64,000 nucleotides of DNA from an uncultured Acidimicrobiia bacterium (GTDB taxonomy: Bacteria; Actinomycetota; Acidimicrobiia; Spongiisociales; ZC4RG35), in contig CAWIXU010000004.1 of NCBI GenBank assembly GCA_963840175.1, positions 9,288 to 73,287 on the forward strand, read 5' to 3'. Shown here piece by piece: positions 3,256-53,673 of the stretch. Position 1 is the first letter of the stretch; each line of letters begins with the position of its first letter. Position numbers and translations under genes: made by a program. The notes below the pieces were generated by a model. It did not search any database. It was not told the origin of the DNA and saw only the letters and a list, made by a program, of their open reading frames with translations.

Positions 3256-4292
3256 GGGCTCGGGATGTCTCCGAGGTCGCTCCCATCCGACTTCGAGCAG
3301 GCGGCGCGCCTCGGCGCCGATCCCGGCACCGGCCGCGACTCGGACCGCGAACGTGCCCATGACCTCGGGGCGTTCGGTCGAGTTGCGGACCACCACCAAG
3401 GGTCGTTTCAAAACCGACACCTCTTCGGCGATCCCTCCCGAATCTGAAATCATCAACGCCGCCTCGGCCTCGAGAGCCAAGAAAGTCGCGATAGCCGATC
3501 GGTTCAACGACCATGAGCTTGTGCGAGCAGAGGCTCCGAGGCCGAACTCCTCGGCCCGGGCGACCGAGCGAGGATGCAACGGCAGCAGGACCGGCAGTGG
3601 CAGCGAGGCGAGCTCGATTCAGAATGGTCGAGTACGTGTCTCGCGTCGTCGACATTCTCGGGTCGATGAAAGGTCGAGAGGATGAAGCGGCCGCTTCCAC
3701 GCCGATACCGAGCCAGAATTTCTCCTACGATCCGTGGGAGCAAGGCGGCGACCGCTTCGACCACCGTGTTGCCTGTCAACGCCACCCGTCCGCCGCGATC
3801 CCCTCGGCGTGCGAGGTTGTCGACCGAAGTTGGCGTCGGGGCGCAACAGAGGTTGCTCAGGTGGTCGGTGACCACCCGGTTGTGCTCCTCGGGCATCCCC
3901 CAGTCGTGGCTCCGCAGCCCCGCCTCGATATGACAGAGGAAGACCGAGCGGGCGTTGGCGGCGAGGGCTCCGGCCGTCACCGAGTTGGTATCCCCTTGAA
4001 CGAGGACGGCACGAGGCTGCTGCTCGGCGAATAGTTCGTCGAGTGAAGCGATGGCCGAACCGATCTGTTGGCCGCGGCTGATCCCGCCGACTTCGAGGAA
4101 GGTGTCAGGGGTTGGGAGGCCGAGGTCGCGGAAGAAGACCTCAGAGAGGTTGGGGTCGTAGTGCTGGCCGGTATGGACGACGAAGGCGGCGTCGCCCAGC
4201 AGATGAATGATGTGGGAGAGCTTGACGATCTCGGGCCGGGTACCCAGCACGACCGCGATTGACTTGGGTGGGAATCCGTACTGGTTGGTCAT
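3190..4292 (-). CDS. wecB: UDP-N-acetylglucosamine 2-epimerase (non-hydrolysing), frame disrupted near the C-terminal third.
   Basis: N-terminus KSIAVVLGTRPEIVKLSHII...HTGQHYD. C-terminal pieces MISDSGGIAEEVSVLKRPLVVVRNSTERPE and SPYGDGSASQKSLEAL lie in other frames. These are typical WecB/MnaA motifs. Confidence 0.8.
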
Positions 4293-5458: not shown

Positions 5459-6380
5459 TTATCCGACTGGGCCCTGACGGCCCGGGGCGAGCGGAGTAGC
5501 CCGCGAACCAAGCCCGACGCCGTAACTCAGGTGCATGATCGCGATTGACCCAATACCTCGAGCAGCCGTCCCCGACTCGCCGAGGGCGAGCACCACGATC
5601 CAGACGACGATCAGGAGAAGCAGCGGCCACCAAATCGTGGTGAGCAGGCCGAAGGCGACCGCGACGACCAGGCCGAGAACCAGGGCTAGCGGAGCCAGCG
5701 GTCGCCATGACGGGAATTCGCCGTTGAGATAGAGCATGTCGGCCTTGCCCAGTCCGTATCGGTAGAACTGGCGCCACAGAGCTGCCGGTGTGGACCGGGG
5801 TCGATAGGTCGTACGGATACTAGGATCGATGAGGATCCGTCCTCCACGTTGGCGAAGTCGATAGAAGAAGTCGGCATCCTCGGCGACACGAGACGGCAGT
5901 GATCTCATCCCGCCGTTGGCGAGGAAAGTCTGCCCGGGTCATGGTTCCGAGATAGACGGTGTCACCTTCGGTTGGCTCCTCGGTGTGATGAAACGGCGCT
6001 GGTCCGATTCCGAACTTTCGAGCGGTAGGCCGCCGCGACCGCCCGGCCAAAAGCGTTGTCGCCTTGCGGACGCATCGGACCGCCGACCGCTGCGGCTCCC
6101 GAAGCGAGGAGTGCTTGCACCGAACGAGTTACGTAAGTCAGGGCCGTAGGTGGTGTGAGCATCGGCTCGGATCAAGACGTCGGCTGCGGTGTTGTCCGCG
6201 GCGAGGTTGAGCGCGTGCGATTGCAGGCGTCGGGGATTGTCGACGACGCGCAACCTTGGTAGGCGAACCAGCCAGCGGGCAAGATGTTCGGGAGTGGCAT
6301 CGGTGGAACCGCCGTCGGCGACAACGAGTTCCCACTCCCCGGCGTAGTCCTGTTCCTCAATGCTCTGCGAGGCATTCGTC
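5459..6380 (-). CDS. Family 2 glycosyltransferase; frame disrupted.
   Basis: LRVVDNPRRLQSHALNLAADNTAADVLIRADAHTTY (N-terminus) and EDADFFYRLRQRGGRILIDPSIRTTY plus a C-terminal transmembrane segment, across two minus-strand frames. Confidence 0.55.
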
Positions 6381-6450
6381 GATACTCCCGGCCTCGTTGA
6401 AGACCGGAAGCAACACAGCGACCGAGGGCAGTTGATTACGTTCTATCGCA

Positions 6451-7802
6451 ATGACGGATTCGGCCTGGCGCCAGCGGTTGTTTCTGGCAATGGTGGCGGT
6501 GCTCCCGCTTCATACCGTTTATCTAAGCGCCTGGATTTCGTGGAAGCCGTTCATGGTCCTCCTGGCCGTCCTGGCCCTGTGGGACCTGGGCGACGGCATT
6601 CGGCTCCGGCAGTGGCCATGGCACAAGCGAATCACGCTCGCGTTCCTTCCCTTGATGGTGGCGGTTGCGATCGGGTTCCCAGGTCCTGAGCTATCGCGAA
6701 CGATTCATCCGGCTCGCCTTAGCGCTTGTCGTCGGGTTCGGGGTGCTGGCAGTTACCGAGCGACGACTGCGCGGCGTCAGGAATGGGAGCGCGCACCCTA
6801 CGGGTCATCTTCTGGTCCGCGGCCGCCATGGCGGTGACCGGCCTGATCTTCTCGGTGCTGCTTCTCGGCCTCGGGGGGGACGAAGGAATCGACTACCTCA
6901 CAGGGTCGCGCGGTTACGACCTTCCTCTCCTCGACAAAATTGGCAAGCCCGCCTATCTCTTGTCGGGTTTCCTCGCGCTTTCCAACTGGCATCAGGACCC
7001 GGGCTATGGAGCCGCTTGGGCGGTCCTCTGGGCGACATTGGCCCTCATCGCTTCCCTCCGCGGCCTCGGAACCAAAAGTCCTCTGATCGACGGAGCGATC
7101 ATCGGTGTTCTTTGGTCCGCAGTGGTGATGGGATTCTCCCGCACCGGGTGGGTGGCGCTGGCCGTGTCGTTGGTTCTCGTGGCCTGGAAGGTGACACGGC
7201 GAGGATTGGTCAAACGGATCGTCGCTGCAACCGTTGCCCTGATCTTGTCGATGGGGCTTCTCTTCGTCGCTGATGTCGAGAATGTCGGGGGGGAGCTGCC
7301 ACTTCAGTTCGCCTTTCGGCTCCGTCAGGGCTGGGACCTCCTGGCATCGATCACCGGGCTGTTCGAGTCATCCGCAGCCTTCGAGGACCAGTTCCAGCCA
7401 TCCGAGCAACGGGCCGACGTCTGGCCGGAGTACTGGCAACTGTTCCTCGACCACCCGGTCACCGGGGTGGGCTTCGGGGTTGGCTGGGAAACCAACTCCA
7501 TCGGCCAGGAACCGCACAACTTGTTTCTCGAGCTCGGAGCAGAAACCGGGATCATCGGTCTCGTCGCTTTTGCGTTGTTGTTGGGCTTGATCATTCGCGC
7601 CGGCAGCGGAGTTCTCGGGGCGGTGGCGCTGACCGTGTCGTTCTTGCCTGCGTTCACCCAGACAGTGCTCTTCGAACCAACCTGGTGGTTCGCCGCCGGC
7701 CTGTTCTTGGCCGCGGGAGGGAAGTTCGAGGATGCCGCGGAGATGCCTGTAGAGTCGTCTGACGAGTCAGGGGTTGTCACCCCAAAACAAGCTGCTGCCT
7801 AG
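6451..7802 (+). CDS. O-antigen ligase/polymerase family (Wzy_C) polytopic membrane protein; one frame disruption.
   Basis: Many transmembrane segments. The motif HNLFLELGAETGIIGLVAFALLL is characteristic of the Wzy_C/O-antigen ligase domain. Confidence 0.65.
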
Positions 7803-7816
7803 GGTTTTGGCGCGCC

Positions 7817-9727
7817 TTGCGTCTGCCTGGAAAGCTGGAAGGAGCGATTTTGCGCTCGCCAATCAGACAACTCCTCGCTGTGATTTTGGCCTTCGGGCTT
7901 CTCGGCGCGAACCTGCCCGTCGCCCACGCGCAGACGACCGATCCGACGTTCACCGTCACCGGATCGGGATGGGGTCACATGGTGGGAATGTCCCAATACG
8001 GAGCGAGGGCGCTCGCCGCGAATGGATCTTCGGCTGCCGATATCACCGGCTTCTATTACGCCGGAACCACCGTGCGTCAAACCACGGACGTCGTTTCCAA
8101 CTTCATGGTCACCGATCCCGATCCGCTCTGGATCGGACTGTTGCAGAACCGGTCGACCTTCAACTTCCGCGTCGACGGCGCCGGACCGGTCGGCCTTTGC
8201 AAAGCCAACGACGGCGAGGGCGAATGTCCCACCCAATTCGCCCTCTCGGGAGAAACCTGGGAGTTCCGCGCGTTGGGCGGCGGTGCCTGCCAGTACTTCA
8301 AAGCCGGGGTGGCAGTTGGCAATCCCGGAACCTGTCGCGGGGCCCTGACCTGGGACTTTGGCACGGGAACGAAGATCTTCTCACCCGATAACGGGCGGAC
8401 ATATGCCCGGGGCATCATCCGCTTCCGTCCGGCCGGAGCCGGATTCCATGTGGTTCTCGAAATCAACATGGAGGGATATCTCTATGGGCTGGGGGAGATG
8501 CCCTCGAGCTGGCCGATGGCGGCGATGCAGGCCCAGGCGATCGCGGCGCGCACCTACGCCTTGCGACAGGCATTGCGATACGGGCCGGAAGAGACGCTTG
8601 ACGCCTCCCGGCAGGCGACCTGTTGGTGTCAGCTGGTCTCCACGGTGGCCGATCAGGCGTACGTGGGTTGGGGCAAGGAGGTGGAGTCGCAAGGAAACCG
8701 GTGGGTCGAGGCAGTCAACACCAGTGCCGGCCAAGTGATCACCCACCCCCAAGCACCGGACTCGACAGTGATCGTCGCCTACTACGCCTCCTCCACGGGA
8801 GGCCACACCGATAGGAATGTCGAGGGCTTGGGCCACACCAATCCCTTGCCTTATCTGGTGGCGACGCCCGACCCCTGGTCCGTGTCAGCCGCCGCGGCTA
8901 ACCCTTTCGCGACCTGGACGCGCACGCTGACCGCAGCCGAGATCGCCACGGCCTTCGGGCTGGAATCAGTCACAGGCGTGGAGGTGACCCGACGCAATGG
9001 CTCCGGTACGGTGGCAGAGGTCACCATTGCCGGCACGCTTGGCGGACAGTCGACACTTCTTGTGCGCAGCGGCCGTAGTTTTCGTGATGCGTTTGCGATG
9101 CGTTCCACTGCCTACGCGATCAGCGGCGGGAGCGGGATCGGGACCGCCATCTGTGACGGCGTACCGCCCCCGGCGGGGTTCACCGATGTCGCGGTCGGCA
9201 ACATCCATTCCGAGGGAATCAACTGCCTGGCCGCCCTGGAGATCACCACCGGGACCACCGCCACCACGTTCTCGCCCGCCCAGGCGGTGAGCAGGTGGCA
9301 GATGGCAGTCTTCTTGATCCGCACCGCTCACGCCCTCGGGATTGCGGTGCCGGCACCCGTGCCGCAGGGATTCACGGACCTAACCGGCATGGCTCTCACC
9401 ACCGTCGATGCGATCAACCAGCTCAAACAACTCGGGGTCACCTCGGGAACGACCCCGACGACCTTTGCCCCCAACGCCAGCGTGTCCCGCTGGCAAATGG
9501 CGCATTTCCTCACCCGTCTTTTCGCGATCGCCGGCGGCGCACCGGCCGGAGCTGGCGCAAGCTTCAGTGATCTCAACGGCCTGAGCCCCGAGACGATCGC
9601 GGCGATTGGCCAGCTGGCCGGTCTGGGGATCACGCTCGGGACGGGTCCCGGGACCTTCGGCCCCAACGACGTGGTCACCCGCGAACAGATGGCGACCTTC
9701 CTCACCCGCCTGATCCGGCTCCTTTAG
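7817..9727 (+). CDS. SpoIID/LytB-domain protein with three C-terminal SLH domains (a fusion of an amidase-enhancer domain to a cell-wall anchor).
   Basis: Signal peptide; GWGHMVGMSQYGARALA and YYASSTGGHTD (SpoIID/LytB motifs); three C-terminal SLH repeats (TFSPAQAVSRWQMAVFLIRT, FAPNASVSRWQMAHFLTRL, FGPNDVVTREQMATFLTRL). Continuous ORF. Confidence 0.75.
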   Translation: MRLPGKLEGAILRSPIRQLLAVILAFGLLGANLPVAHAQTTDPTFTVTGSGWGHMVGMSQYGARALAANGSSAADITGFYYAGTTVRQTTDVVSNFMVTDPDPLWIGLLQNRSTFNFRVDGAGPVGLCKANDGEGECPTQFALSGETWEFRALGGGACQYFKAGVAVGNPGTCRGALTWDFGTGTKIFSPDNGRTYARGIIRFRPAGAGFHVVLEINMEGYLYGLGEMPSSWPMAAMQAQAIAARTYALRQALRYGPEETLDASRQATCWCQLVSTVADQAYVGWGKEVESQGNRWVEAVNTSAGQVITHPQAPDSTVIVAYYASSTGGHTDRNVEGLGHTNPLPYLVATPDPWSVSAAAANPFATWTRTLTAAEIATAFGLESVTGVEVTRRNGSGTVAEVTIAGTLGGQSTLLVRSGRSFRDAFAMRSTAYAISGGSGIGTAICDGVPPPAGFTDVAVGNIHSEGINCLAALEITTGTTATTFSPAQAVSRWQMAVFLIRTAHALGIAVPAPVPQGFTDLTGMALTTVDAINQLKQLGVTSGTTPTTFAPNASVSRWQMAHFLTRLFAIAGGAPAGAGASFSDLNGLSPETIAAIGQLAGLGITLGTGPGTFGPNDVVTREQMATFLTRLIRLL

Positions 9728-9775
9728 TCCTATTTCCTCTGTAGGGAGAGTTGGGCGCGGCCGATTGATGACAGG

Positions 9776-10960
9776 ATGGCGGTTGTTGGCAATGGACCCG
9801 AAACAGAGTGCAGGCGTGACGTCGAAGAGCTGGACTCACCGCGGGGCTTCAAGGCACCGGGCACTGCTCGCATGATCGCCGGCTCGCTGGTCGGCGCGGT
9901 GGCGGCCTACCTCTTCCAGGTGCGTCGGCGTGCGCAGCGTCTGGGGACGGAAGCCTTCGCGCCGATCGCCGTCCTGTGGACCGTCTTCTTCATCGTCGCC
10001 ACTGTGATCGTCTGATTCCTCTGGAGCATTTCGTGACCCGCGAGGTGGGGCGAGGACGACGGGTGCTGCGTTCGGATCGAGCGGCGATGATCCTCTGATC
10101 CTCCTCTCACCGGCAACGCTGATCGCGGCTGTTCGTATTATCTGATGCGGGACCGCCTCTTTGCCGGCGAGTCGATCTTTGCGTTCCAGGCCTTCCTTCT
10201 GACGATCGGGTTTGGATTGATGCAGGTCGGCAAAGGCATCCTGGCCGGACATCGGCAGTTTGCTCGTTACGGGGCGCGTCCTGGGCTCGAAGGAATCATA
10301 CGGCTCTTGGCGGCCGTCATCTTCCTCGCGCTGTCGGCCAGCGCCGTCTCGCTCGGTTGGGCCATGGTGGCCGCGCCTCTCGGCGATCTTCTTCGTCACG
10401 ACCCTGGAGCCACGATCGGGAGACCGTCGCCGGAGTCGTCGCGACGCCGGCCCGCGGGTTCTTGTCTTCTTACGTTGCGGGCGCGGCAGCTTCCCAGCTT
10501 CTACTGGCCGGAGCCCCGCTCGCGGTAGCAGCTCTCGGTGGCAACGAGCATCTGCGTAGCGTCATGTTCGTCACCTTCACTCTGTATCGGGCGCCGCTGA
10601 CGCTGATTTACAACCTGCAGGGCCGAGTTCTTTCACTCCTGGTCCGCCTCGAAAACGGCGACGCGATTCGACGTCTGGATCGACCAGGGTGGCGACCTTC
10701 GGAGTCGGCATGATCGCGGTCGCCGGTCTGGTCGGATGGTTGGTCGGGCCGGCCGTCGTCGAGCTGCTTTACGGGCAGGATGCTCGTCCGATCGCACTCG
10801 TCGCAGCTTGTGCGGCGGCCGGCGTTATCGCCGCCTCGATCACGCAGATCCTTTCGCAGGCGCTGGTGGCGGGAGGATCAACCGGCGAGTTGGCCGGCGC
10901 GTGGGTCGGCGGCCTCGTCGTCGGGCTGGGGACGATGGCGCTTCTGGAACGGGCCTCCCG
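9776..10960 (+). CDS. Polysaccharide biosynthesis/export membrane protein (MOP-superfamily flippase, Wzx/MurJ-like), fragmented over at least four frames.
   Basis: Successive hydrophobic pieces (LVGAVAAYLFQ..., FQAFLLTIGFGLMQ..., LLAGAPLAVAALGG..., VGMIAVAGLVGWLVGPAVVELLYG...) with flippase-like character and no soluble domain. Confidence 0.4.
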
Positions 10961-11029
10961 ACGTGCGAGTGGCGGTCGGCTTCCTCGCCGGCGGAGGTTG
11001 TTCGCCCTGGCTTTGGCGACTTGGCGCAT

Positions 11030-11450
11030 TCTCCGTCCGCGTTGACATCCACTCGATATGCGCTCGCCGCAATGCCGGCGACATTCTCTTGATGGCCCCG
11101 TCATCGAGGGGTTGAATTCGGTCCCGAGCGATGATCACGTTCCCGTCGAGGTGAACGAGCCCGGCTGATAGCAAAGTCGAGAGGTGCAAGGGCCGCCGTA
11201 GGGAGTTGCCGCGGAAACCTGCTTGCACGATGCGCAACAGGTCAGCGATCGCTTCTACGCCCAGAACTGCGGACCAAAATCTCCGGACGTACAGATCGGT
11301 TGGGGCGAACCCGGACTCGCTTTTCATGATGGAGACGAGATAGAGCGGACGGCGGGCGACTGTCGGTCGGAGCGCCTCGTCCGGAAGCGGTGCGGCCAAT
11401 GTTGCATAGGGAGGACATGGCAACGGCTTCCGGGACGAGACACTCCTCAC
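11030..11450 (-). CDS. Hypothetical protein, possibly a winged-helix regulator-like fold.
   Basis: Minus ORF 10878..11450. The central part LYLVSIMKSESGFAPTDLYVRRFWSAVLGVEAIADLLRIVQAGF...PLHLSTLLSAGLVHLDGNVIIARDRI looks protein-like; the tail is low complexity. No family recognised. Confidence 0.25.
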
Positions 11451-11565
11451 GCTTACGAAGTATCAAGAACCGTTAACTACCGTCAAGTCCCTTAGAAACC
11501 TTCTTTTCGCGACTTCTGGATGCTTCAGCTTCTCCCCGGAGCGGGGATAGCGCGCGATCGCGTTT

Positions 11566-12126
11566 TCTTCCCCCGGAGGGGGGAGTACCCGAGCGAAGCG
11601 AGGGGGTAGGGGGCGTTTTCTCGAGACCCAGGAGCTCAACCCTCTTCTATTCCCCTCGAAAAGGAACTACTCGTTCAACATGGCCCGACCCCGTCACACC
11701 GACCTCGCCGCGAACGAGAGCACGGGAGCTTCAGAAACGGGATGACCGTCTCAGAGGCGCGGGTGTGGCAGGTGATCCGCGGCGGACAATGCGGCGCCCG
11801 GTTCCGTCGGCAGGTTCCGATCGGACGGTGGATCGTCGACTTCGCCAGTCTGCAAGCCACGACTGGTGCTCGAAATCGATGACGAGTCACACGACTGGCG
11901 TGACGAAACGGAACGCATCGAGTACATCGAAGCGGAGGGTTTTCCGATTTTGCGGCTGACAAACAAATACGTCGCCGAGGACCTCGGCGCCGTTCAGCGA
12001 ACGGTGAGCTTGTGGGTGGCGGAGCTCAAGGCAGGGCGAAGGCCGGAGTAGGGATCGCGTCTGGAGAGAACGCCCCCCTCGTCTGCCTCCTTCGTCGGCA
12101 GACACTCCCCCCTCCGGGGGAGAAAC
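11566..12126 (+). mobile_element. Copy 1 of a ~560 bp element bounded by ~50 bp imperfect G-rich terminal inverted repeats, carrying a disrupted DUF559 ORF. Extra partial inverted-repeat satellites lie at 11529-11548 and 12131-12150.
   Basis: Left end TTCTTCCCCCGGAGGGGGGAGTACCCGAGCGAAGCGAGGGGGTAGGGGGCGTT. Right end AACGCCCCCCTCGTCTGCCTCCTTCGTCGGCAGACACTCCCCCCTCCGGGGGAGAAAC, approximately its reverse complement. About 85% identical to copy 2 at 41559-42118. Confidence 0.7.
11680..12051 (+). pseudogene. DUF559 (Vsr/endonuclease-like) ORF of element copy 1, frame-disrupted in the middle.
   Basis: MTVSEARVWQVIRGGQCGARFRRQVPIGRWIVDFAS then shift, then LEIDDESHDWRDETERIEYIEAEGFPILRLTNKYV. Compare the intact copy at 41675..42043. 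Confidence 0.65.
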
Positions 12127-12175: not shown

Positions 12176-14752
12176 TTAGCCCGAGGGTGGCGCAGGGGCG
12201 GCGGCCTGGCCGACGGTGATGTACACCGGGCTCTTGTACGTCATCGCCGTTCCCGGCCCGGGGGTCTGAGCGAGAACGACATCGACCTGGGCGGGGTCGG
12301 TGACCGGCACGTAGGTCGCGTACACGTCGACCCAGGTCCCAGTTGAGTAGATGAATCGGTTGATCGTTCGGTAGGCCTCGCTGATCGGTAGGCCGATCAC
12401 ACTCGGCAACGCGCCGCCAGGGACCTGGCCGTTCGAGACATATATACGAATCGGAAGCCCGGCTTCGACTTCGGCTCCCGAACCGAGCGACTGGAAAACG
12501 ACGGTGCCCGCGGCCTGCAGCGAGGGAATCGGGGTTCACGTTGGGGATGAGTTTGGCCTCGGTCGCCAACGACACTGCCTCGGCTTCGGTCTTGCCGATG
12601 AGATAGGGAACGATGGTGGTCGGGGGCTTGAGGAACGGCTGGAGCTCCTCTTCGGTCAGGCGTGGAAAGTCGAGTGCTTCGACATCGGTCAGCACCATCC
12701 GCATGAACTCGGCCCAGATCGGAGCCGGGACCGAACCACCGAAGACCCGTTCGTAATACTCACCGTGGATGCGAACGTTGCGCAGGGGAACCTGATCTCG
12801 CTCGTACCCCACCCAGACCGCAGTCGTGTACTGCGGAACGAAACCGACGTACCAGGCGTCGCGATAGTCCTGGTGGGTGCCGGTCTTTCCACCCTGGGGC
12901 CGACCGATGGCGGCTCGCTCGGCCGTTCCTTCCGCGGTCGGCACTTCGAGCAGCGGGATTCGCGCTGCCTCGGCGATCGGCGCGGCGATCACCTGCTGCT
13001 GCTCGACCTGGTGCTGGTAGAGCACCTGGCCGTCCTCGTCGAGGATGCGGTCGATCAGATAGGGCTCGGCGTAGAGGCCGTTGGTGGCGAAGGACGAATA
13101 GGCGGAAGCCATCTCCAAGGTCGAAACTGCACCGGTCCCCAGCACGATCGAAGGCACCGGCTGGCAGCGGTGAGGTGATCCCCATTCGGTGCGCGGTCTC
13201 CACTACCTTCTCCGGCCCTACCTGCAAGGAGAGCTGGGCGTAGATCACATTGATCGATCGAGAGGTGGCTTCCTGGAGGGTGATGCGGCCGGCGCTGGCC
13301 CCGGCATTCGACACGGTCCACTTGTTGGGATCGGGCCCATCCGAGCAGATCGTCGGGCAGGTCAGGATGCGAGGGCTCGACCCGTCATATGTGTTGCCGA
13401 GCGTGATGCCGTTCTCGAGCGCCGCGACCAGACCAAACGGCTTGAACGCCGAACCGGGGTTACGTCGACCCTGGACGGCGAGGTCGAACTGGCTCTGTTC
13501 GAAGGGGAGCCCCGAAGCCATCACCTCGACCGCCCCGGTCTGGTTGTTGACCATCGTCAAAGCTCCAGTTGGTGAGCAAGAGTTGGCCTCGGCGTACGAG
13601 GTCAGGTTCTCGATCGGCTCGCTGGGAAAGATTCTCGTGCAGAGTTGCAGGTTCTCTTCGTAGGAATAGAAGGGGAGCCACTCGAGCAGCATCGCATTCG
13701 CCGCTTGCTGCAAATTGAGATCGATGGTCGTTTCGATGGTCAGGCCCCCGCCACCGACGCAGTTGACATCGTCGGATGGGCAACCGAAGACCGAGATGGC
13801 GCGCTCCTCCAGGGTCTGGCCGAGAAAATCGAACTCGTGACGCGAGAGGTCGGACAGCTGCCGCATCACCTCGGTGCGCACGTGTTCCGCCTCGCCGCGG
13901 AACTCGATGTGCTCGAGCACCCCAAGGGGTCTTGACTTGGCGATCTCCGCCTGAGATTCAGTGGTCCAGTCCTGTTCGAGCATGAGGTCGATGACGTCGT
14001 TGCGCCGATCGAGAACTACCTCTGGATTGTCGCCGAGGGTCGTAGAGCGAAGGGTTGCGGATGAGCACCGCGAGGGTGGCGGCCTGATCCAGGGTCAGCT
14101 CGGACATCTCGCGGTGGAAGAACTCACGGGCCGCGGTCTTGACCCCGTAGGCGCCGGCACCGAAGTAGACCGAGTTCATGTAGAACTCGAGGATCTTGTC
14201 CTTCGAGTGGCGACGCTCGAGCTCGGCGGCGATAAACGCCTCTTTGATCTTCCGCTCGATCGTGACCTCGTCGCCGACGAAGACGTTTTTCACGACCTGC
14301 TGGGTGATGGTCGAACCGCCGCGGGTGTTGCCGCTGCGGAAGTTGTCGAGGGCAGCCGAGGCGATGGCCGGGAACGAGACGCCCTGATGGTCGTAGAAGC
14401 CTTTGTCCTCCGCCGCCAGGATCGCGTGTTGAAGGAGCAACGGCACCTCGTCGATCGGGGCCGGCTCGGAGTTGCGCCCGTCGTGGAGCTCGCCGATGAT
14501 TTCTCCGCTTGCCCATATCCGCGACACCCGTGACAGGTCGGGGAGGGTCAGAGTCAACGTCTCGACTTCAGGGACGTACTCGGCTCTTACCTTGTCGATG
14601 GCGGCATAGGCGGAGTTGGCGCCGAGGAAAGTGAAGAGGCCAACCCAGGTGCTGCCCAGGAGCGCGATCGACAGCAGTCCCGCCAGAGCCGGGAACCAGC
14701 GGCCACGACGCTCGCGCGCTTCCAGTTGGTGGATGAGGGATCGATTGGCCAT
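12176..14752 (-). CDS. ponA: Class A penicillin-binding protein (transglycosylase + transpeptidase + C-terminal PASTA); frame disrupted.
   Basis: N-terminal transmembrane segment; EDKGFYDHQGV and GGSTITQQVVKN (GT51); SAFKPF (SxxK) and KTGT in the transpeptidase part; PASTA-like C-terminus (12176..12409). Confidence 0.8.
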
Positions 14753-14826: not shown

Positions 14827-16377
14827 TTGCGCACTCCCAGCGGAATCGAAATCGAGGTTGTCTACGACCAACCCGCCGATCCCGACAAAATCGGCAGTCC
14901 GGGTGAGTATCCGTTCACCCGCGGCCCTCATCCCACGATGTATCGCGGACGGCTCTGGACGATGCGTCAGTACGCCGGCTACGGCACCGCCGACGCCACC
15001 AATCGCCGGTTTCGTGAGCTCCTCGCCGCCGGGCAGACCGGCCTATCGACTGCCTTCGACCTGCCGACGCAGATGGGACTCGACAGCGACCACCCGTTGG
15101 CCGAGGGAGAGGTCGGCAAGGTCGGAGTGGCGATCGACACCCTCGACGACATGCGCCGTCTCTTTCGGGAGATCCCTCTCTCCGAGGTGTCCACCTCGAT
15201 GACGATCAACGCCACGGCTCCGATCCTGCTCCTGCTCTATCAGCTGGTGGCGGAGGAGCAAGGCGTCGATGGCAAGGAAATCCGGGGCACCGTGCAGAAC
15301 GACATCCTCAAGGAGTACGTCGCCCGCGGCACCTACATCTACCCGCCGGGGCCGTCGATGCGGATCGTCACCGACGTCTTCTCGTACGCGGCCAAGGAGC
15401 TCCCGGCCTTCAACCCGATTTCGATCTCCGGCTATCACATCCGCGAAGCCGGCTCCACCGCCGCCCAGGAACTCGCGTTCACGATCGCCCATGGCCTCGC
15501 CTACGTGGATGCCGCCCTGAAAGCCGGCCTCGACATCGACGACTTTGCTCCCCGGCTCTCATTCTTCTGGAACAGCCACAACCTCTTCTTCGAGGAGGTA
15601 GCCAAGTTCCGTGCAGCCCGCCGATTGTGGGCCGACCTGATGCGGAATCGCTTCGGAGCCAAAGACGAGCGGTCGTGGGCGATGCGGTTCCACACCCAGA
15701 CCGCCGGTTCGACTCTGACCGCGCAGCAGACCGGAAACAACGTGGTGCGCACGACCGTCCAGGCCATGGCCGCCATCCTCGGAGGGACGCAATCGCTGCA
15801 CACCAACTCTTTCGACGAGGCCGTTGGACTGCCGACCGACGAATCGGCCCGTCTCGCCTTGCGGACCCAGCAGGTACTCGCCCACGAATCCGGCCTCGCG
15901 GATGACAGTCGATCCGCTGGCCGGCTCCTACTTCGTCGAGGAGCTCACCAACCAGCTCGAAGCCTCGGCCCGCTCACTGCTCGACGCAGATCGAAAGGAT
16001 GGGGGGCGCGGTGGCGGCAATCGAGAGCGGGGTGGACGCAACGTCAGATCGAAGAGGCGGCCTACGAAGAGGCCCGTCGCCAGGAGTCAGGCGAATCGAT
16101 CGTGCTCGGGGTGAACCGATATGTAGTCGGCGATGAGGCTGAGATTCCGGCGTTGAGAATCGACCCTGAGCTGGAGCGCGAGCAAAAGGCGCGCCTCGGC
16201 CAATGGAAGGCAGAGCGCTCGGCAACTGAAGTCGAATCCGCCCTCGACGCCGTCACCATCGCAGCCGGAGACGGGACCAATTTGCTTTATCCCATGAAGG
16301 AAGCGCTTGTCGCCGGTGCAACCTTGGGCGAGTGTTCCGAGGCGATGCGGGCCGTGTTCGGGAGCCACCGACCGTGA
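14827..16377 (+). CDS. Methylmalonyl-CoA mutase-family catalytic (TIM-barrel) subunit without a fused B12-binding domain; one frame disruption near 15900.
   Basis: YPFTRGPHPTMYRGRLWTMRQYAGYGTA, TAFDLPTQMG, HTNSFDEAVGLPT, and a C-terminus ending VFGSHRP. This is the typical MCM/ICM large-subunit N-domain. Confidence 0.75.
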   Translation: MRTPSGIEIEVVYDQPADPDKIGSPGEYPFTRGPHPTMYRGRLWTMRQYAGYGTADATNRRFRELLAAGQTGLSTAFDLPTQMGLDSDHPLAEGEVGKVGVAIDTLDDMRRLFREIPLSEVSTSMTINATAPILLLLYQLVAEEQGVDGKEIRGTVQNDILKEYVARGTYIYPPGPSMRIVTDVFSYAAKELPAFNPISISGYHIREAGSTAAQELAFTIAHGLAYVDAALKAGLDIDDFAPRLSFFWNSHNLFFEEVAKFRAARRLWADLMRNRFGAKDERSWAMRFHTQTAGSTLTAQQTGNNVVRTTVQAMAAILGGTQSLHTNSFDEAVGLPTDESARLALRTQQVLAHESGLADDSRSAGRLLLRRGAHQPARSLGPLTARRRSKGWGARWRQSRAGWTQRQIEEAAYEEARRQESGESIVLGVNRYVVGDEAEIPALRIDPELEREQKARLGQWKAERSATEVESALDAVTIAAGDGTNLLYPMKEALVAGATLGECSEAMRAVFGSHRP

Positions 16378-17730
16378 CCACCGACCCCAAGCGAACCCGC
16401 TTTCTGATTATCGGCGCCGGCCCGGCCGGCACCGCCGCCGCCACCAACGCGGCCGCGCTAGGCGCAAAGGTCACTCTGGTCGAGGACCAGATCGTCGGTG
16501 GCGCGGCCCATCTTTGGGATTGCATTCCCTCCAAGACCATGATCGCCACCGCCGTGCGGATCGACTCGATGCGCAACGCCCCCCGGCTCGGGGTGACCGC
16601 CGCGCCCGGGCAGCGTCGACAGCGCCCAACTAGCCGAGCGAATCTCCATCATCTCCGGCGACATCAACCGCAGCTGGGTCGACCTCCTCAGCAGCCAGGC
16701 GGTCGAGATCATCAACGGGAAGGCCCGGCTGACCGGTCCAATCAGGCGATCGTCGAGGGAGATGACGGCGAACAGCACCGATCGAGCTTTGACGTCTGCC
16801 TGCTCTCGACCGGCTCGGCTCCCGCGTGTCCCGGCCTGGGCAGTCATCGACGGAGAACGAATCCTGACGACTCGCGACGCCTACGACCTCGAGCGAGGTG
16901 CCCGAACAGTTGATCGTGATCGGTTCGGGGGTCACCGGAGTCGAGTTCGTGCACATCTTCGAGTCGCTCGGTTCGGACGTCACCCTGGTGGTCAGCCGTC
17001 AGCAGATCCTTCCCCACCGCGATCCCGAGGTCGCAGCGGTGCTGGAAGAGAACTTCCTCGAAAGCGGGAGTGCGTCTGGTCATCGGCGCTCGCGCGATCG
17101 GGATTGATCGAACCGAAGACGGAGTCAGGGTTCGCTGCGACGACGGGCGGGTGGTCGAAGGCACCCACGCCTTGCTGGCGATCGGCTCGGTCCCGAACAC
17201 CGACTGATCTCGGACTGGGCGAGCTCGGCATCAAGGAGAGCGGCGGTTTCATCCAGGTCGACGAGCATCAGCGGACCTCGGTTCCCCACATCTATGCCGC
17301 AGGAGACTGCACCGGCCAGTTGCTGCTTTCCTCGGTGGCTGCAGTGCAGGGCCGGAAGATCGCCCGTCACGCGATGGGCTTGCCGGTCACACCGATCGAC
17401 TACTCCAAGGTGAGCCAGGCGATTTTCACTGAGCCCGAGATCGCCTCGGTCGGCCTTGAGGAGGCCGAGCTGGCCGCGGGAGGTCGCAAGGTGCGCACAA
17501 CCAAAGTGCCCTTTGCCGCCAACGCTCGGGCGGTGCTGCAAGGAAATCCCCGCGGCTTCGTCAAAGTCATGTCGGATCCCGCCACCGGAGTCGTCCTGGG
17601 CGGGAGCATCGTCGGCCACCGCGCCTCGGAGCTGATCGGGATCATGGCCCTCGCGGTCAAAGCGCGGGTCACGGTCAACGTCCTCGTCGACACCCTGATG
17701 GTGCACCCCTCCTCTCGGAAGCGATCAGCG
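16374..17730 (+). CDS. Flavoprotein disulfide-reductase family (LpdA-like NAD(P)H-quinone reductase, single-Cys CIPSKT type); frame disrupted.
   Basis: FLIIGAGPAGTAAA (FAD fold), WDCIPSKTMIA in place of CVNVGC, a second NAD fold (VIGSGVTGVEF), and a C-terminal dimerisation region. The GTG start overlaps the mutase stop. Confidence 0.6.
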
Positions 17731-17740
17731 AAGCAGCGGA

Positions 17741-17775
17741 GTGAGACGTCAGATCAGACGTCAGACATCAGAATG
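17741..17775 (+). repeat. Arm of the tandem GTCAGACAT/GACGTCAGA repeat family (GTGAGACGTCAGATCAGACGTCAGACATCAGAATG).
   Basis: Direct reading. Inverted relative to the arm at 18620-18656 and matching the left arm of the hairpin at 45427-45459. Confidence 0.8.
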
Positions 17776-29440: not shown

Positions 29441-31600
29441 GTGGCCGTCGCGATCCTGGCCGCTGACGGCATCGATCCCCAGGGAACCCTGCAGGCCCTT
29501 CGCTCGCAAGTTTATGCGCCAACCCAGACTCTGGTCGTGGGCGGTGCCCACTGGTCGGAAAGGGTCGTGCGAGACAGCTCAGACGTGCTCGCGGCACTGG
29601 CACCTGACGTCTCCTTCGTGTGGTGGGTGCACGGCGATACGCGTCCGCGGCCGGACGCTCTGGGCGGGTTGGTCCGCGAGCTCGACCGCACGGAGGCCGC
29701 TGTCGCGGGGTCGAAGATTCTCATCGACGGCGGCAGCGATCGCCTGATTAGTCGGTCGGTGGGGCAACTGACGTCTACGGCGACGTCTACACCGGGCTCG
29801 ATCCCGACGAGCTCGACCTCGAGCAGTACGACGTGGTCCGTGAGGTCTCCTACGTCTCGGCTGTCTCGTTGTTGGTGCGACGCGATCTGTCTGCGCGGCC
29901 TCGGTGGATTCGACCCTGCCCTCGCTCCGCAAGCGTCGAGCATCGACTTTTGTCAGCGGGTGCGTCTCGCAGGAGGAAGAGTCGTCGTGGTTCCGTCCTC
30001 TGAGGTCTTCCACCAGTCTCCTTGCGCGGCCGAGGCTCCCGGGATGGAAGGAGCAAGGCGGTCGCAACAAGGCGATGCTGGTTGCCTATTCGCCGCTGAC
30101 CCTCGCCTGGGTGGTTCCGATCGGGCGCGCTTGTCGGCTTGCTCGATGGGCTGTCGCAACTCGTTCTCGGCAGGTTCCGACCATCTGCTGGCGACGATCG
30201 CCTCGTGGTTTTGGACCCTCGGCCAGGTGCCGTCGGTCATCGCGGCCCGGGCGCGCATGCGCCGGATCAGGGCGGTGGGAGATGAGGAGCTCTTTCGATT
30301 TCAGGTCAGCGGTTCGTCACGTCTGCGGCGCACTTTCTCCGAACTCGGTGATCGCTTCAACACGGCGATTGACGAGGAGGAGAGCGGGTCCTTGGCCGAA
30401 CGAGCTACGAGTGCTTGGCGGCGACCCATCGGCGGGTCTCTCGGCATTGTCTCCGGCCTTGGCGTCCTGGTTGCGTACTCGTTCGATCTGGTTCAGCGGT
30501 CCGCCTGAGGTGGGCTTCGCGCTGCCACCGTCGGGTTTGAGTGGGTTGGTCGCCTCCTACGGCGGCGGACCCAATCCGGCGGGTTTCGGGTCCGATTTGG
30601 TGGTCCCGCCGGTCGTCGGCCTCGGTTCGATCTGCCTATCCTCTTGCTCGGCCGCCGACCGAATCTGGCCTCCGCCCTTTTGCTTGCTGGCCGCGATCGC
30701 CCTCGCCCTCCTGGGCATGGCGCGACTGGCCCGACGGATGGGGGCAGGGTCGCTCGCGGGCGTTCGTCGCCGGCTGGGTCTACGTGGCCGGGGCGACGAC
30801 GGCCGCGGTCGATGCGACCGCCAACTGGCCCGCGCTGATGGCTGTCGGACCCTTGCCCTGGGCGATCGAGGCGATCGTTGCTCCTCCTGTCCAGGGTCGT
30901 CGACGGGTCGGCCGGTTGGCCGCGGCCGGGTTCGCCGCGGGCTTTGTGGCGATCGCTTTTCCGCCGCTTCTCTGGTCGTGGTCGCGCGAGCGGTTTGCTT
31001 TGGGCCGTCGTCGCCCGCCGTTTCGGGGCCGCTGGCCTCGGTCTCGCGGCGACTGCTCTCGGCTGCTCTCTGATCCTCCCCTATGTGTTGGGGGCCGATC
31101 TCAACGACGTGCTCTTTGCCGGCAAGCTCCGCCCCGATATCGCCAACGAGTGGCTCTGGCTGGCGGGGATCGGGCTCGGCTTCGCGGTCGCCGCCCTCTC
31201 TTCGCCGCGGACCCGGCTGCCTCGATCTGGTGGGCGGGAATCATGGCCGCGGCGGGTTATCTCGTTTCGCAGAGTCCCGACGTTGCCCCCGGGGTGGTGG
31301 TCGTGGCGTTGATGGCTGCGCGATTGGGGCCGGCGTGCTTGCGGCCAGTCTCATCGAAGTCGAGGCCGCGACCGAAGCTGCTCGGCGGTCTCGCGGCCGC
31401 GCTTCTCGCTATTGCCAGCCGTCCTCACCATCGCCCAGGGACGCTTTGGACTTCCCGGCCGATCGTTGGACCGACCGGCTCGACTTCGTGACCACGTTGA
31501 GCGCCGACGAGGCCCAGGCCGCGCCCTGCTCATCGGGCCCCGTGGATCTTTGCCTGGCCGTGCTCGGTCTCTGTTCGGGTTCGACTATCGCACGATCGAC
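29441..31600 (+). CDS. Family 2 glycosyltransferase fused to a large C-terminal polytopic membrane domain; frame disrupted.
   Basis: WWVHGDTRPRPDALGGLV and DFCQRVRLAGGRVVVVPSSEVFH (GT2), followed by about 1.4 kb of hydrophobic segments in shifting frames. Confidence 0.45.
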
Positions 31601-31699
31601 GGGGGCCAGACAACACTGACCCAGGCGTATCTGTCGAGTCCCGGCCCCCTCGATGACGAGCTTGCTGGGTGATCAACGATCATCTACTGGCCGGAGTCG

Positions 31700-33300
31700 A
31701 TCTCCGACCGGGTGCCGCGCCTGGCCCGGCTCGGCATCGAGTGGCTTGTGCTCGTCCCCGGCTCCGAGTTCCCGACCGAGATCCTCAATCGGCAGATCGA
31801 TCTCGTGGCCCGACCGGTCGACACCGATCTCGCGGTTTATCAGAACCTCTCCTACCGGCCGGCGGACCTCGCTCCGGCGTGGGACGGGGTCGGAGCTGGC
31901 GCGCACGCGCCGGCTGGGGTCGGGGGCCTTGCTCGTCGTGCTCGTCGCGGTCGCCTACTGGGGACGCAACCGGGGCCGGCAAGTTCCGATCGTGGAGCCG
32001 GTCCCGAGCCAGTGGATCGGGCCGGTGAGCGTCGGATGAGCGAGCGCGTAGCCCGCTGGGGCATCGTGTTGGTCGTCGTTCGCCGCACTGCTTTTCGGCT
32101 TCTTGCTTCCCGGCCGGCCCGGCGCCGGTCGTCGATCCAGCTGACGATCCCCGGTGACCCGCCCCTATGTGACCTGTGCCGCGGCTCTGGCCGGGTCGGG
32201 ATTCGAATCGACGGTGGGTGTGGTGACCGACTCATCCGTCAGCGGGACGCTCAGCGGGGTGGGGGTCGACAGCCCGGGCGACGACTTCGAACTGAGGGCG
32301 ACGAAAGCTTTCGCTTCGAGGTTGGGAGCGTGGCCGAGCTCGGCGTCACCCCGATCCTGGTTGAACGATTCACCGGTGGCGACCTGGGCGCGGGCGTTCT
32401 AGGGCGAGCAGGTGCGCAGGCGTCGACCGCCGGGTGCCAGCCGGCCAGTTCCGCTCCGGTCGCTTTGCTGGGCATGGCCACAAACGAGGGCGAGCAATCG
32501 ACGGTCGTGCTCGCCAATCCCTTCGCGGTCGAGGCCAGCGGCCGGTTGGTGGGGTCGTCGGAGTTTGGACTGGACATGGTCACCGAGCTCGAGTCCGTGC
32601 GGGTCCCGGCGCATTCGACGCTCACCTTGCCGCTCGGCCAGCTGATGGCCGGGCGTCAGCAGCTCGGCTTCACGCTCTACACCGACGGCGGAGCGATCGT
32701 GGCTGGCATGACCCGCTCGGGCGCAGACATCGCGACCTCGGAGGCGATCGCCGGCGCCCAGCAGTGGTTCGTTCCGCTTCCCGCCTTCGGTGTCCACGGA
32801 CAACTGATCGTTCGCAACCTCGCTTCGGTCGAGGCGACCTATCGCATCGACGCATTGAATCACGAAGGCGTGATCGAGGGCGTTGACAATGGCGCCCTTC
32901 CCCCCGACACCGAGTTCTGGCTTCAACTTCGAGGACCTTGGGGACAAGCGGCGGCTATCTCGTCACTGCCGACGAGCCGGTCGCGGTCGCGCTCGCTTAC
33001 GCGGGCGAGAACACCCGCATCGTTTCGACTGCATCTCCGACTGCCGACCGTCGCCTGGTTGGTACCCGTGTCGAGCAACGCCCCCGATTCCGAGACCGCG
33101 GTCTGGATCCTCAATCCCGAGGAGGCTGCGGTGACGGCGGAGGTGGCCGTCTTCGGCGGTGCCACCACCGAGTTCGAGGTTTCGACCGGGAACGACCTTT
33201 GGCCAGATCGTCCGCTTCAATGGCCGCGGCGGAATGATCACCGCCACCGGCGAGGTTGCGGTCTTCCACGGAGTCCTGAGCGACGGCGGCGCCGCGTCGA
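31700..33300 (+). CDS. Large exported, beta-rich protein of unknown function.
   Basis: Long protein-like ORF 31712..33514, e.g. STVVLANPFAVEASGRLVGSSEFGLDMVTELESVRVPAHSTLTLPLGQLMAG..., AVWILNPEEAAVTAEVAVFGGATTEFEVSTGND. No family recognised. Confidence 0.35.
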
Positions 33301-33315
33301 TGACTCTGGCTCATC

Positions 33316-33640: not shown

Positions 33641-33731
33641 TGGGAGGGCGTTCCCCGCGCCCTCCGATCTCCCCCGCTGACCGTACGGTCGCTGGTGGAA
33701 AGGCCACAACGAATCCTCCAAGCGTTCTACC

Positions 33732-33959: not shown

Positions 33960-33965
33960 CCGGCC

Positions 33966-48124: not shown

Positions 48125-48145
48125 CCAGGTGCTAGAAGTTCGCTC

Positions 48146-49284: not shown

Positions 49285-49393
49285 GTGCGTTGGACGTCTC
49301 TAACGGCCCACAGAACGGACGGAAGTTCGGTTTCGCACTCTGAGCCGGTTACCCTGAACCGGCCATCCGGGCATTCACGATGGGTCAGGACCA

Positions 49394-52704: not shown

Positions 52705-52709
52705 GTCTT

Positions 52710-53620: not shown

Positions 53621-53673
53621 CCGACGCAGCTTCTCTCCCCGACCAACTTCGGCTCGGCCGTTCTTCGTAATCG

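Follow-up and report, generated by a model that had tools for sequence, protein, structure and literature searches.

To our knowledge, SpoIID-type enzymes have been studied almost solely in endospore formation. Bacillus subtilis LytB has N-terminal CWB2 repeats, the canonical domain order and a partner of the Amidase_3 type. In P. larvae, LytC amidases bearing SLH repeats have been reported. The catalytic Glu of the SpoIID family resides in a GVVxxEMP/S motif (PMC6934232); activity of C. difficile SpoIID requires E101, and a Zn site has been described in the same enzyme (PMC6221140). SpoIID cleaves denuded glycan only (PMC6221140, PMC6934232). Catalysis is not to be assumed from domain membership, because B. 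subtilis LytB is reported not to hydrolyze peptidoglycan (PMC10653849).

Here we analyze a gene coding for a SpoIID-SLH protein in a 64,000-nucleotide stretch of DNA from an uncultured Acidimicrobiia bacterium (hereafter the window). We consider that its product is probably a secreted glycan-strand cutter of the SpoIID/LytB superfamily, tethered non-covalently to the wall through its SLH repeats and acting as a lytic transglycosylase on strands stripped by an amidase. The literature searched contains no description of the SpoIID and SLH combination, of a SpoIID permutation, of SpoIID in Actinobacteria or Streptomyces, or of SLH in Acidimicrobiia, in keeping with the first-pass annotation, which had supposed the architecture to be uncharacterized in Actinomycetota.

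Gene, start site and export signal

The gene forms a single uninterrupted ORF of 636 aa on the forward strand (7817..9727), as read from the sequence and as first annotated. Residue numbers used throughout count from TTG 7817, the mechanical ORF start. The actual start is most likely TTG 7850 rather than 7817, since a Shine-Dalgarno sequence, GGAAGGAG (7837..7844, +), can be read in the sequence with a 5-nt spacing before TTG 7850, and the 625-aa orthologue from locus L082 begins, in the alignment, at position 7850. The coding sequence would consequently span 7850..9727 (+), for 625 aa plus a stop; the originally annotated ORF thus exists, with a start that probably has to be moved. Orthologues are 613-634 aa long and their alignments begin at 7850.

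A Sec-type signal peptide, also proposed at first, is predicted at residues 12-38 (7850..7930, +; MRSPIRQLLAVILAFGLLGANLPVAHA, followed by QT), with cleavage predicted after VAHA. The region exhibits two Arg, a hydrophobic core and an A-x-A pattern whose position is kept across all full-length homologues, and its residues 15-31 are modeled as a helix with low pLDDT; it would therefore act as a Sec-type export signal. The SpoIID-SLH assignment is well above chance, since 643 database proteins match the protein at E<=1e-10, the best with 91% identity.

A permuted SpoIID/LytB catalytic domain

The SpoIID domain held up in HMM searches, with scores above the cut-offs of both TIGR02669 (SpoIID_LytB, NCBIfam; 145.1 bits, cut-off 83.3) and Pfam PF08486 (SpoIID, residues 209-310; E 2.3e-16, 60.6 bits, cut-off 23). 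The protein is not an orthologue of sporulation SpoIID, because its score against the sporulation SpoIID equivalog TIGR02870 (127.8 bits) is below the cut-off of 234.75. The SpoIID/LytB core (8453..9136, +; residues 213-440), equivalent to residues 66-265 of 4RWR, bears a YGLGEMPSSW catalytic motif, a CWC loop and the YYASSTGGHTD sequence, and has a beta-rich portion at its end. The putative catalytic residue, Glu227 (codon 8495..8497, +), is found within YGLGEMPSSW, in agreement with the superfamily motif, and its counterpart in the alignment to C. difficile SpoIID (5TXU) is E101. It is invariant in 84 homologues with identities down to 35%. H54, G57, Q60, Y61, G62, Y323, S325, S326 and G329 are invariant as well. 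Cys269-Trp-Cys271 (8621..8629, +) aligns with Zn-loop residues C140/C146 of C. difficile SpoIID; C269 and C271 are both invariant in the homologue alignment. The pair of His ligands known from the C. difficile Zn site is missing from the SpoIID-SLH protein. The GHGVGMSQxGA motif is present as GWGHMVGMSQYGA at residues 51-63, residue 55 being Met in the clade of the window (GHM) as opposed to the near-universal Gly (GHG).

The order of these elements differs from that of solved SpoIID structures. The N-segment (7946..8110, +; residues 44-98), consisting of a strand, the GWGHMVGMSQYGA motif, two helices and a second strand, is the counterpart of the C-terminal end of canonical SpoIID (4RWR residues 276-329). 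In phmmer alignments, residues 45-98 of the query match 4RWR 276-329 while residues 216-431 match 4RWR 66-265, and the alignments to 4RWR, 5I1T and 5TXU are all non-collinear. Solved SpoIID structures have the Glu core first and the GHGVGMSQYGA segment at the C-terminus; the catalytic domain of the SpoIID-SLH protein instead opens with the GHxVGMSQYGA segment, continues with a Cys-containing beta insert of ~115 aa and ends with the Glu227 core. As far as such alignments can tell, the catalytic domain is a circular permutant, and the non-collinear segment order makes the protein a homologue of permuted topology rather than a standard-order member. The first-pass annotation had rightly quoted GMSQYGA (residues 57-63) and YYASSTGGHTD (residues 322-332), but had overlooked that these motifs flank the insert and stand in reversed order relative to solved SpoIID.

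This topology extends well beyond the window. An HMM of the N-segment placed it before the core in 43 proteins (permuted) and after the core in 26 (canonical), for 69 proteins in all. Among the matches listed, 39 actinomycetotal proteins were permuted versus 3 canonical, and the permuted order was not seen in cyanobacterial or Firmicutes proteins, this taxon tally being drawn from a biased sample, the 600 contig stretches listed, which missed close relatives. Among the 150 closest 50%-identity representatives, 141 were permuted. No duplication intermediate, in which GHG segments would flank the core at either end, was found in 80 genome loci or the 150 representatives.

The insert (8111..8452, +; residues 99-212) is all-beta with ~11 strands according to the AF2 secondary structure, and contains the conserved pairs Cys128/137 and Cys158/173. 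Its HMM matches in close relatives only, and the insert has no sequence match in the PDB. Its last ~20 residues (YARGIIRFRPAGAGFHV) resemble the Y-R-G start of canonical SpoIID/LytB domains. That residues 99-212 represent a displaced canonical N-terminal beta region was considered but not supported, hhalign against canonical N-terminal regions giving a probability of 1-5% and aligning only the Y-R-G stretch. Foldseek returned a weak, non-significant likeness of the insert to lectin/CBM-like beta-sandwiches.

The SLH module

The three C-terminal SLH repeats initially noticed were recovered by Pfam (PF00395, E 4.5e-23, three stretches), and a family-derived HMM positions them at residues 453-512, 517-574 and 582-636. 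Repeat 1 (9173..9352, +; residues 453-512) and repeat 2 (9365..9547, +; residues 517-577) contain the conserved Arg493 and Arg558, each within SRWQ, and repeat 3 (9557..9724, +; residues 581-636) contains the conserved Arg622 within TREQ. These three Arg are at least 90% conserved, and SbsB has its TR(L/V/G)x motifs at the aligned positions. The three repeats are predicted to form a pseudo-trimeric fold: the AF2 model of the module (pLDDT 92.9) matches 3PYW and 6BT4 in Foldseek (E 4.5e-9 and 2.7e-8; target TM 0.82 and 0.85), i.e., B. anthracis Sap-SLH, including its complex with a pyruvylated secondary cell-wall polymer. Neither CsaB nor a PS_pyruv_trans domain was found among the 46 scanned ORF translations of the window, and PS_pyruv_trans is absent from the Pfam lists of nine related loci.

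Distribution of the SpoIID-SLH architecture

The fusion, suspected at first to be rare, proved common once surveyed. SpoIID and SLH occur together in more than 100 90%-identity clusters of ~625 aa, mostly from Acidimicrobiia MAGs and amounting to ~108 of the 120 best such clusters; C-terminal SLH repeats are found in 46 of the 141 permuted representatives among the closest 50%-identity ones. Nitriliruptorales also have SLH-SpoIID proteins, as does Citricoccus, where the SLH part is N-terminal. At E<=1e-30, 424 50%-identity clusters match, and relatives devoid of SLH carry PG_binding_1/2/3, LysM-like or CWB2 partner domains. The SpoIID-SLH protein is thus common in Acidimicrobiia but unstudied, and the gene of the window is a typical, already auto-annotated member of its family.

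Neighboring genes and the amidase partner

Upstream of the gene lies a Wzy_C (O-antigen ligase/polymerase-like) membrane protein gene split over three reading frames (6469..7802, +), and downstream a gene in three frame pieces for a conserved polytopic membrane protein of ~415 aa without a family match (9776..11042, +). The former belongs to a conserved glycan-synthesis block consisting of a UDP-GlcNAc 2-epimerase (Epimerase_2; 3504..4292, -), two GT2s and Wzy_C. This block adjoins SLH proteins and was found in L083, L084, L085, L087 and L089; the adjacent UDP-GlcNAc 2-epimerase of the window would supply ManNAc. Our analysis indicates that Acidimicrobiia anchor several surface proteins via SLH. 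A class A PBP gene in four frame pieces (12206..14752, -), whose orthologues contain Transgly, Transpeptidase and PASTA domains, is also a conserved neighbor. A scan of 6200-11600 for promoters and terminators gave no more sites than shuffled sequence did and is therefore uninformative.

In relatives, an Amidase_2 gene is placed between the Wzy_C gene and the SpoIID gene. It directly precedes the SpoIID gene in L083, L084, L086, L088 and L089, and also in L014 and L052, where the two genes share 4 nt, the usual overlap of this pair in relatives; in L025 and L072 both domains are fused in one ORF. This amidase-SpoIID operon is kept in ~50%-identical Acidimicrobiia relatives, in Cellulomonas and in Kribbellaceae. 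Pairs in which the amidase and the SpoIID protein each have an anchor use the same anchor type (SLH with SLH in L083, of Acidimicrobiia; CWB2 with CWB2 in L014, of Cellulomonas). The window has no adjacent amidase of this kind: only 47 nt separate the Wzy_C stop from TTG 7850, tblastn with two Amidase_2 catalytic regions matched SLH parts only across the 64 kb, and Pfam scans of the 46 window ORF translations returned no amidase. The amidase gene is likewise missing at the SpoIID loci of L001, L082 and L087, and L085 retains a 157-aa SLH-only remnant. Judging by these locus comparisons, the clade of the window has lost the ancestral amidase gene from its operon by deletion. This amidase-less clade comprises at least 20 90%-identity clusters at 64-91% identity, all full length.

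That the SpoIID gene itself is heading to pseudogenization after the loss of its partner, amid frameshifted neighbors, is hardly credible. Compared with L082, Wzy_C, the downstream membrane protein, GT2b, PBP1 and Pyr_redox are indeed broken into frame pieces, and no long homopolymers were obvious on inspection of the junctions. Yet all 625 residues of the SpoIID-SLH ORF align to the L082 orthologue without indels, all invariant residues are retained, and every cluster of the amidase-less clade is full length; moreover, finding an essential class A PBP in four pieces suggests assembly or sequencing indels rather than biology.

The neighborhood could also be read as that of an enzyme whose target is not peptidoglycan but an envelope glycan produced by the adjacent genes, be it the secondary cell-wall polymer or a different one, which the enzyme would act on or help to assemble. 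Of the 9 family loci sampled, 7 have Epimerase_2, both GT2s and Wzy_C upstream, and all 9 have Wzy_C there; in 6, the next gene after SpoIID is that of the ~415-aa membrane protein, which lies further downstream in L083. According to the scan above, no terminator-like site separates the SpoIID stop of the window from this gene, and the lectin/CBM-like resemblance of the insert, non-significant as it is, would fit such a role. We nevertheless consider this reading very unlikely: other Actinomycetota (L014, L052, L025 and L072) have a permuted SpoIID paired with a peptidoglycan amidase, as a coupled gene or in one fused protein, and lack this glycan cluster, the partner domains of the non-SLH relatives are peptidoglycan-binding, the conserved neighbors include the class A PBP, and peptidoglycan glycan strands are the target of every characterized family member.

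A closer competitor to glycan-strand cutting is a non-catalytic modifier that, like LytB, would bind peptidoglycan beside an SLH-anchored amidase and stimulate it. The domain layout of the protein parallels LytB/LytC, as does the arrangement of the two genes in relatives. LytB is listed as a protein that "does not hydrolyze PG" (PMC10653849) and stimulates amidases (PMC10653849, PMC6934232), and stimulation of SpoIIP by a catalytically dead form of B. subtilis SpoIID has been reported (PMC6934232), although this effect was not reproduced with the C. difficile enzymes (PMC6934232). However, the invariance of the catalytic Glu and its surroundings down to 35% identity argues for chemistry being retained, and a pure amidase-activator role is hard to reconcile with a clade that keeps all catalytic residues while its partner amidase gene is missing. 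On balance, a modifier without cutting activity appears unlikely.

Proposed function

We therefore favor a cutter of glycan strands, as stated at the outset. Following Sec export, the signal peptide would be removed after Ala38, and the predicted SLH pseudo-trimer would dock on a secondary cell-wall polymer, probably anionic (pyruvylated), via the Arg of each SRWQ/TREQ motif. Glu227 would serve as the acid catalyst, and MurNAc-GlcNAc bonds would be cut by lytic transglycosylase chemistry by analogy with B. subtilis and C. difficile SpoIID; as for SpoIID, the preferred substrate would be strands already stripped of their peptides by an amidase. The pair encoded by the ancestral operon would act in sequence, amidase before glycan cutter, like SpoIIP/SpoIID and LytC/LytB. 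With the partner gene deleted, the enzyme of the window would either depend on an amidase from another part of the genome or have changed in what it requires. The general idea of the first-pass annotation, a SpoIID-type peptidoglycan enzyme localized by SLH repeats, accordingly finds backing in the invariant E227, the conserved SLH Arg and the predicted SLH fold.

A bolder proposal, which we regard as quite unlikely, is that actinobacterial SpoIID/LytB proteins form a distinct permuted clade, ancestrally co-translated with Amidase_2, within which the window's clade (GHM for GHG, S324A, S327T) became autonomous after partner deletion, with a changed substrate requirement such as cutting peptide-bearing glycan or pairing with an unrelated amidase. 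If true, the autonomous GHM clade would be a natural experiment on the denuded-glycan gating of SpoIID-type enzymes.

The practical message for the gene of the window itself is modest. The wider significance lies in a large vegetative SpoIID-type branch in Actinomycetota, as outlined by the cluster counts above, whose members depart from the known domain topology, carry an extra beta module and interchangeable wall anchors, and are repeatedly coupled or fused to an amidase. This branch yields testable predictions on ordered peptidoglycan degradation, amidase first and glycan cutter second, in a phylum in which autolysin control is medically and ecologically relevant.

Comparison with known systems

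The catalytic module is homologous to those of the B. subtilis, B. anthracis and C. difficile SpoIID proteins (4RWR, 5I1T, 5TXU; E 1.5e-21 to 4RWR), with which it shares the catalytic Glu, GHGVGMSQxGA, an aromatic residue plus SSxGG motif and two Zn-loop cysteines. The amidase dependence expected of SpoIID fits with the amidase gene that relatives of the window protein have next to their SpoIID gene. Unlike SpoIID, the window protein is neither membrane-anchored nor linked to sporulation, and SpoIIM and SpoIIP are missing from its gene context; it is also permuted, carries the ~115-aa insert and has no equivalents of the His residues that bind Zn in the C. difficile enzyme. With the SLH-anchored surface proteins and autolysins known from Firmicutes (Sap and EA1 of B. 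anthracis, SpaA of P. alvei, LytC-type amidases with SLH repeats) it shares the predicted three-repeat pseudo-trimer and a conserved Arg per repeat, but its host belongs to the Actinomycetota (Acidimicrobiia) and its motifs are SRWQ/SRWQ/TREQ rather than of the TRAE type.

The closest parallel is B. subtilis LytB (CwbA), which likewise combines a SpoIID/LytB domain with three wall-binding repeats and is a protein of the vegetative wall rather than of sporulation. LytB is encoded beside an N-acetylmuramoyl-L-alanine amidase with the same repeat type (LytC, lytABC operon), and the same logic is seen in L083 and L014. Relative to LytB, the repeats of the SpoIID-SLH protein are C-terminal and of the SLH type, and its catalytic domain is permuted with an extra beta insert; relative to the LytB/LytC pair, the partner in relatives is an Amidase_2 in the order amidase then SpoIID, and its gene is absent from the window. 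The design is not new: wall-binding repeats, a SpoIID/LytB domain and pairing with an amidase are the B. subtilis LytB/LytC arrangement.

Domain composition and start codon of the SpoIID/LytB-SLH gene

The SpoIID/LytB-SLH gene lies in a single unbroken ORF at 7817..9727 (+), which would encode 636 aa from a TTG start codon. A strong Shine-Dalgarno sequence (GGAAGGAG, 7837-7844) is found 5 nt ahead of a second TTG at 7850, and the 625-aa orthologue of the related locus L082 aligns from exactly this codon across all 625 residues with zero indels. Based on this spacing and alignment, 7850..9727 most likely represents the real gene; residue numbers nevertheless count from 7817. The N-terminus, MRSPIRQLLAVILAFGLLGANLPVAHA/QT, resembles a Sec-type signal peptide, the position of which is conserved in the family alignment. 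Pfam searches, proposed by the first-pass annotation for both domains, detected a SpoIID domain (E 2.3e-16, residues 209-310) and three SLH repeats (E 4.5e-23), and the protein scored 145 bits against NCBIfam TIGR02669 (SpoIID/LytB domain; cut-off 83). The architecture initially claimed, a putative signal peptide followed by a SpoIID/LytB domain and three SLH domains in one continuous ORF, is thus confirmed. The score against the sporulation-specific equivalog TIGR02870 was 128 bits, far under its cut-off of 235.

A circularly permuted catalytic domain

Three solved SpoIID structures (4RWR, 5I1T and 5TXU) aligned with the protein in two non-collinear pieces. Residues 45-98 (FTVTGSGWGHMVGMSQYGA...YYAGTTV) match the final ~55 residues of solved SpoIID (4RWR 276-329), and residues 216-431 align to its residues 66-265. 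The catalytic domain therefore appears to be circularly permuted, the GHxVGMSQ segment preceding the core that bears the putative catalytic glutamate. Foldseek searches of the PDB library with two high-confidence models returned zero SpoIID structures, though phmmer finds 4RWR at E 1.5e-21, so that either the structure library lacks these entries or the sequential aligner fails on a permuted domain. The intervening residues 99-212 have no PDB match and are predicted to fold as an all-beta insert of about 11 strands, with Cys128/137 and Cys158/173 conserved in the family alignment. Only the last ~20 insert residues resemble the Y-R-G start of the canonical domain; hhalign detected no counterpart of the remainder in that domain (probability 1-5%).

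Three HMMs, one for each piece of the family alignment, were run on 80 listed loci of species-representative genomes. The canonical order, with the core immediately followed by the segment at the very end of the protein, was found in 26 proteins (e.g., core 136-334 and segment 336-381 in a protein of 384 aa). The permuted order was found in 43, the segment standing 97-446 residues ahead of the core (97-204 in all but that of L026), and none of the 80 loci showed the segment on both sides. Among the matches listed, a tally biased by a query that is itself permuted, Actinomycetota accounted for 39 permuted, 3 canonical and 10 undetermined cases, all classifiable matches from cyanobacteria, Firmicutes, Bacteroidota, Gemmatimonadota and Ignavibacteriales were canonical, and the four permuted cases outside the Actinomycetota came from three unclassified MAGs and one member of the Limnocylindrales. 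When 1.84 billion 50%-identity representatives were searched exhaustively with HMMER, 13,967 proteins matched at E<=1e-3, of which 424 reached E<=1e-30; 141 of the 150 best representatives are permuted. Judging from the profile score and the catalytic residues, the protein belongs to the SpoIID/LytB superfamily; it departs from the canonical segment order and is not a SpoIID orthologue.

Conservation of catalytic residues

Glu227 (YGLGEMPSSW) aligns to E101 of Clostridioides difficile SpoIID, a residue of the family motif GVVxxEMP/S (PMC6934232) that is needed for in vitro activity and sporulation (PMC6221140). Across 84 homologues, the most distant at 35% identity, it never varies, and the same holds for H54, G57, Q60, Y61, G62, Y323, S325, S326, G329 and the CWC pair C269/C271. 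These cysteines align to C140 and C146 of the Zn loop of the C. difficile enzyme, the His ligands of which are absent from the aligned protein. The invariance of catalytic and motif residues speaks for an active enzyme and against a degenerate binding domain.

SLH module and alternative anchors

The SLH repeats (residues 453-512, 517-577 and 581-636) are predicted with high confidence, and their model superposes on the Bacillus anthracis Sap SLH trimer with a TM of 0.82-0.85, a range that takes in Sap SLH complexed with a pyruvylated wall-polymer unit. The Arg of the TRAE-type motif is retained in all three repeats (SRWQ, SRWQ, TREQ), with a conservation of at least 90%. A second SLH-rich coding region (~455-1915, on to ~2944, +) carries at least five repeats in three reading frames and would correspond to one or two frameshifted genes. 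Downstream of ~455-1915 are ORFs that match no family, along with a weak Ig-like (Big_1) match at 2624-2944; the equivalent region of L085 encodes three SLH proteins, one with a GH26 domain. Related loci likewise encode between one and four additional SLH proteins, so anchoring by SLH domains is general in these organisms. The CsaB pyruvyl-transferase was not found within the 64-kb window or nine related loci. ManNAc would be supplied by a UDP-GlcNAc 2-epimerase, encoded by a conserved neighbour gene.

The architecture had been considered rare, a view that the survey of its distribution overturned. Among the 120 top-ranking 90%-identity clusters, ~108 combine both Pfam domains at a length of about 625 aa; those with names come from MAGs of Acidimicrobiia or Actinomycetota and already bear the label 'SpoIID/LytB domain-containing protein'. 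C-terminal SLH domains are present in 46 of the 141 closest permuted 50%-identity representatives. The combination also occurs in Nitriliruptorales and, with SLH at the N-terminus, in Citricoccus. The gene is an ordinary member of a large, auto-annotated yet unstudied family. Anchors in 65 non-SLH representatives included FG-GAP/VCBS (17), PG_binding_1 (7), RTX repeats (6), CWB2 (5), PG_binding_3 (5) and LGFP (3). Thus, the permuted module pairs with many wall-binding modules, of which SLH is individually the commonest in this region of sequence space.

Gene neighbourhood

Genes for the UDP-GlcNAc 2-epimerase (-), two GT2 proteins (+ and -) and Wzy_C (+) precede the SpoIID-SLH gene (+), which is followed by genes for a polytopic ~415-aa membrane protein (+), a class A PBP (-) and a methylmalonyl-CoA mutase (+). 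This complete order is common to L082, L085 and L087, and most of nine sampled loci have Wzy_C directly upstream and the PBP-mutase pair downstream. Compared with L082, the genes for the PBP (12206-14752, -; four frame pieces), Wzy_C (6469-7799, +; three), the membrane protein (9776-11042, +; three), a GT2 (5510-6437, -) and a pyridine-nucleotide oxidoreductase (16374-17741, +) are interrupted by frameshifts; their L082 orthologues are intact. No long homopolymers are obvious at the junctions. The PBP being essential, its broken gene points to indels from assembly or sequencing more than to true pseudogenes. The mutase and SpoIID-SLH genes are intact, and decay of the latter is very improbable given its unaffected, conserved ORF.

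Neither Pfam nor NCBIfam gave a match for the ~415-aa protein. A 189-aa ORF (10884-11450, -), 63% identical to a called L082 gene, overlaps the 3' end of its gene; either may be spurious. Elsewhere, a housekeeping block (45830-54024) encodes SecA, a peptide chain release factor with PCRF and RF-1 domains (assigned as RF2 because its gene precedes ftsE), FtsE, FtsX and, directly after, an M23 peptidase that is likely an FtsEX-controlled hydrolase, with a tmRNA (157.7 bits) at 53671-54024 (-). GC content peaks at 30001-34000 (0.67-0.68), where AT skew is strongly negative (-0.34 at 30-32 kb) and the only ORF with a Pfam match encodes a DUF5719 protein (31673-33514).

An amidase partner and its loss

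In five related loci (L083, L084, L086, L088 and L089; SpoIID proteins about 50-54% identical to that of the window), a gene for an Amidase_2 protein of 664-687 aa lies between the Wzy_C and SpoIID genes. SLH domains were detected on all of these amidases except that of L089, and in four of the five loci the end of the amidase gene and the beginning of the SpoIID gene share 4 nt. The slot is filled in L085 (56% identity) by a 157-aa SLH-only ORF (9531-10004) with the same 4-nt overlap, which appears to be a remnant left by deletion of the catalytic part, intermediate between paired and orphan states. It is empty in L001, L082, L087 and the window (67-100% identity); in the window, the SpoIID start codon follows Wzy_C after a gap of just 47 nt, and tblastn with amidase catalytic regions gave zero matches within the 64 kb.

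The pairing reaches far outside Acidimicrobiia. In Cellulomonas persica, an Amidase_2-FlgD_ig-CWB2x3 gene overlaps a SpoIID-CWB2x3 gene by 4 nt, and in a Kribbellaceae MAG an Amidase_2-LGFP gene overlaps a SpoIID gene by 4 nt. Single polypeptides combining Amidase_2, FlgD_ig, (CWB2) and permuted SpoIID are encoded in two MAGs, one from Nanopelagicales and one unclassified (L025 40-4746, L072 8129-11377). That the two genes recur side by side, are translationally coupled, specify matching anchors wherever both products are anchored and are in places fused makes a strong case, from homology and context, that both enzymes work together.

The near-universal GHGVGMSQ reads GHMVGMSQ (Met55, 7979-7981) in 20 of the 84 sequences, namely all those at least 64% identical to the window protein. 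S324A and S327T in YYASSTGG are specific to this clade, which is also the amidase-less clade (neighbourhoods agree in 4/4 GHM and 5/5 GHG loci). Both traits being clade markers, they count as one event and not as an independent correlation.

Proposed function and comparison with known systems

Like every functional statement made here, our preferred reading draws on homology and context: the protein is probably an SLH-tethered lytic transglycosylase acting on denuded glycan strands. A LytB-like amidase activator without catalysis seems unlikely, as the catalytic residues are invariant and were retained after the partner gene was lost. Action on the product of the neighbouring glycan cluster is less likely still, partners being of the peptidoglycan type everywhere else. 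The permutation, the insert and the amidase coupling appear undescribed, no description having been found in the literature searched. The pairing in relatives matches the order of action of SpoIIP then SpoIID, the latter acting only on amidase-stripped glycan (PMC6221140, PMC6934232), and also matches LytC with LytB (PMC10653849, PMC6934232). The design resembles LytB/LytC in its anchor repeats and a SpoIID domain beside an anchored amidase. It differs from LytB/LytC in its SLH anchor, its permuted topology and its partner, an Amidase_2 protein in relatives that is missing in the window.
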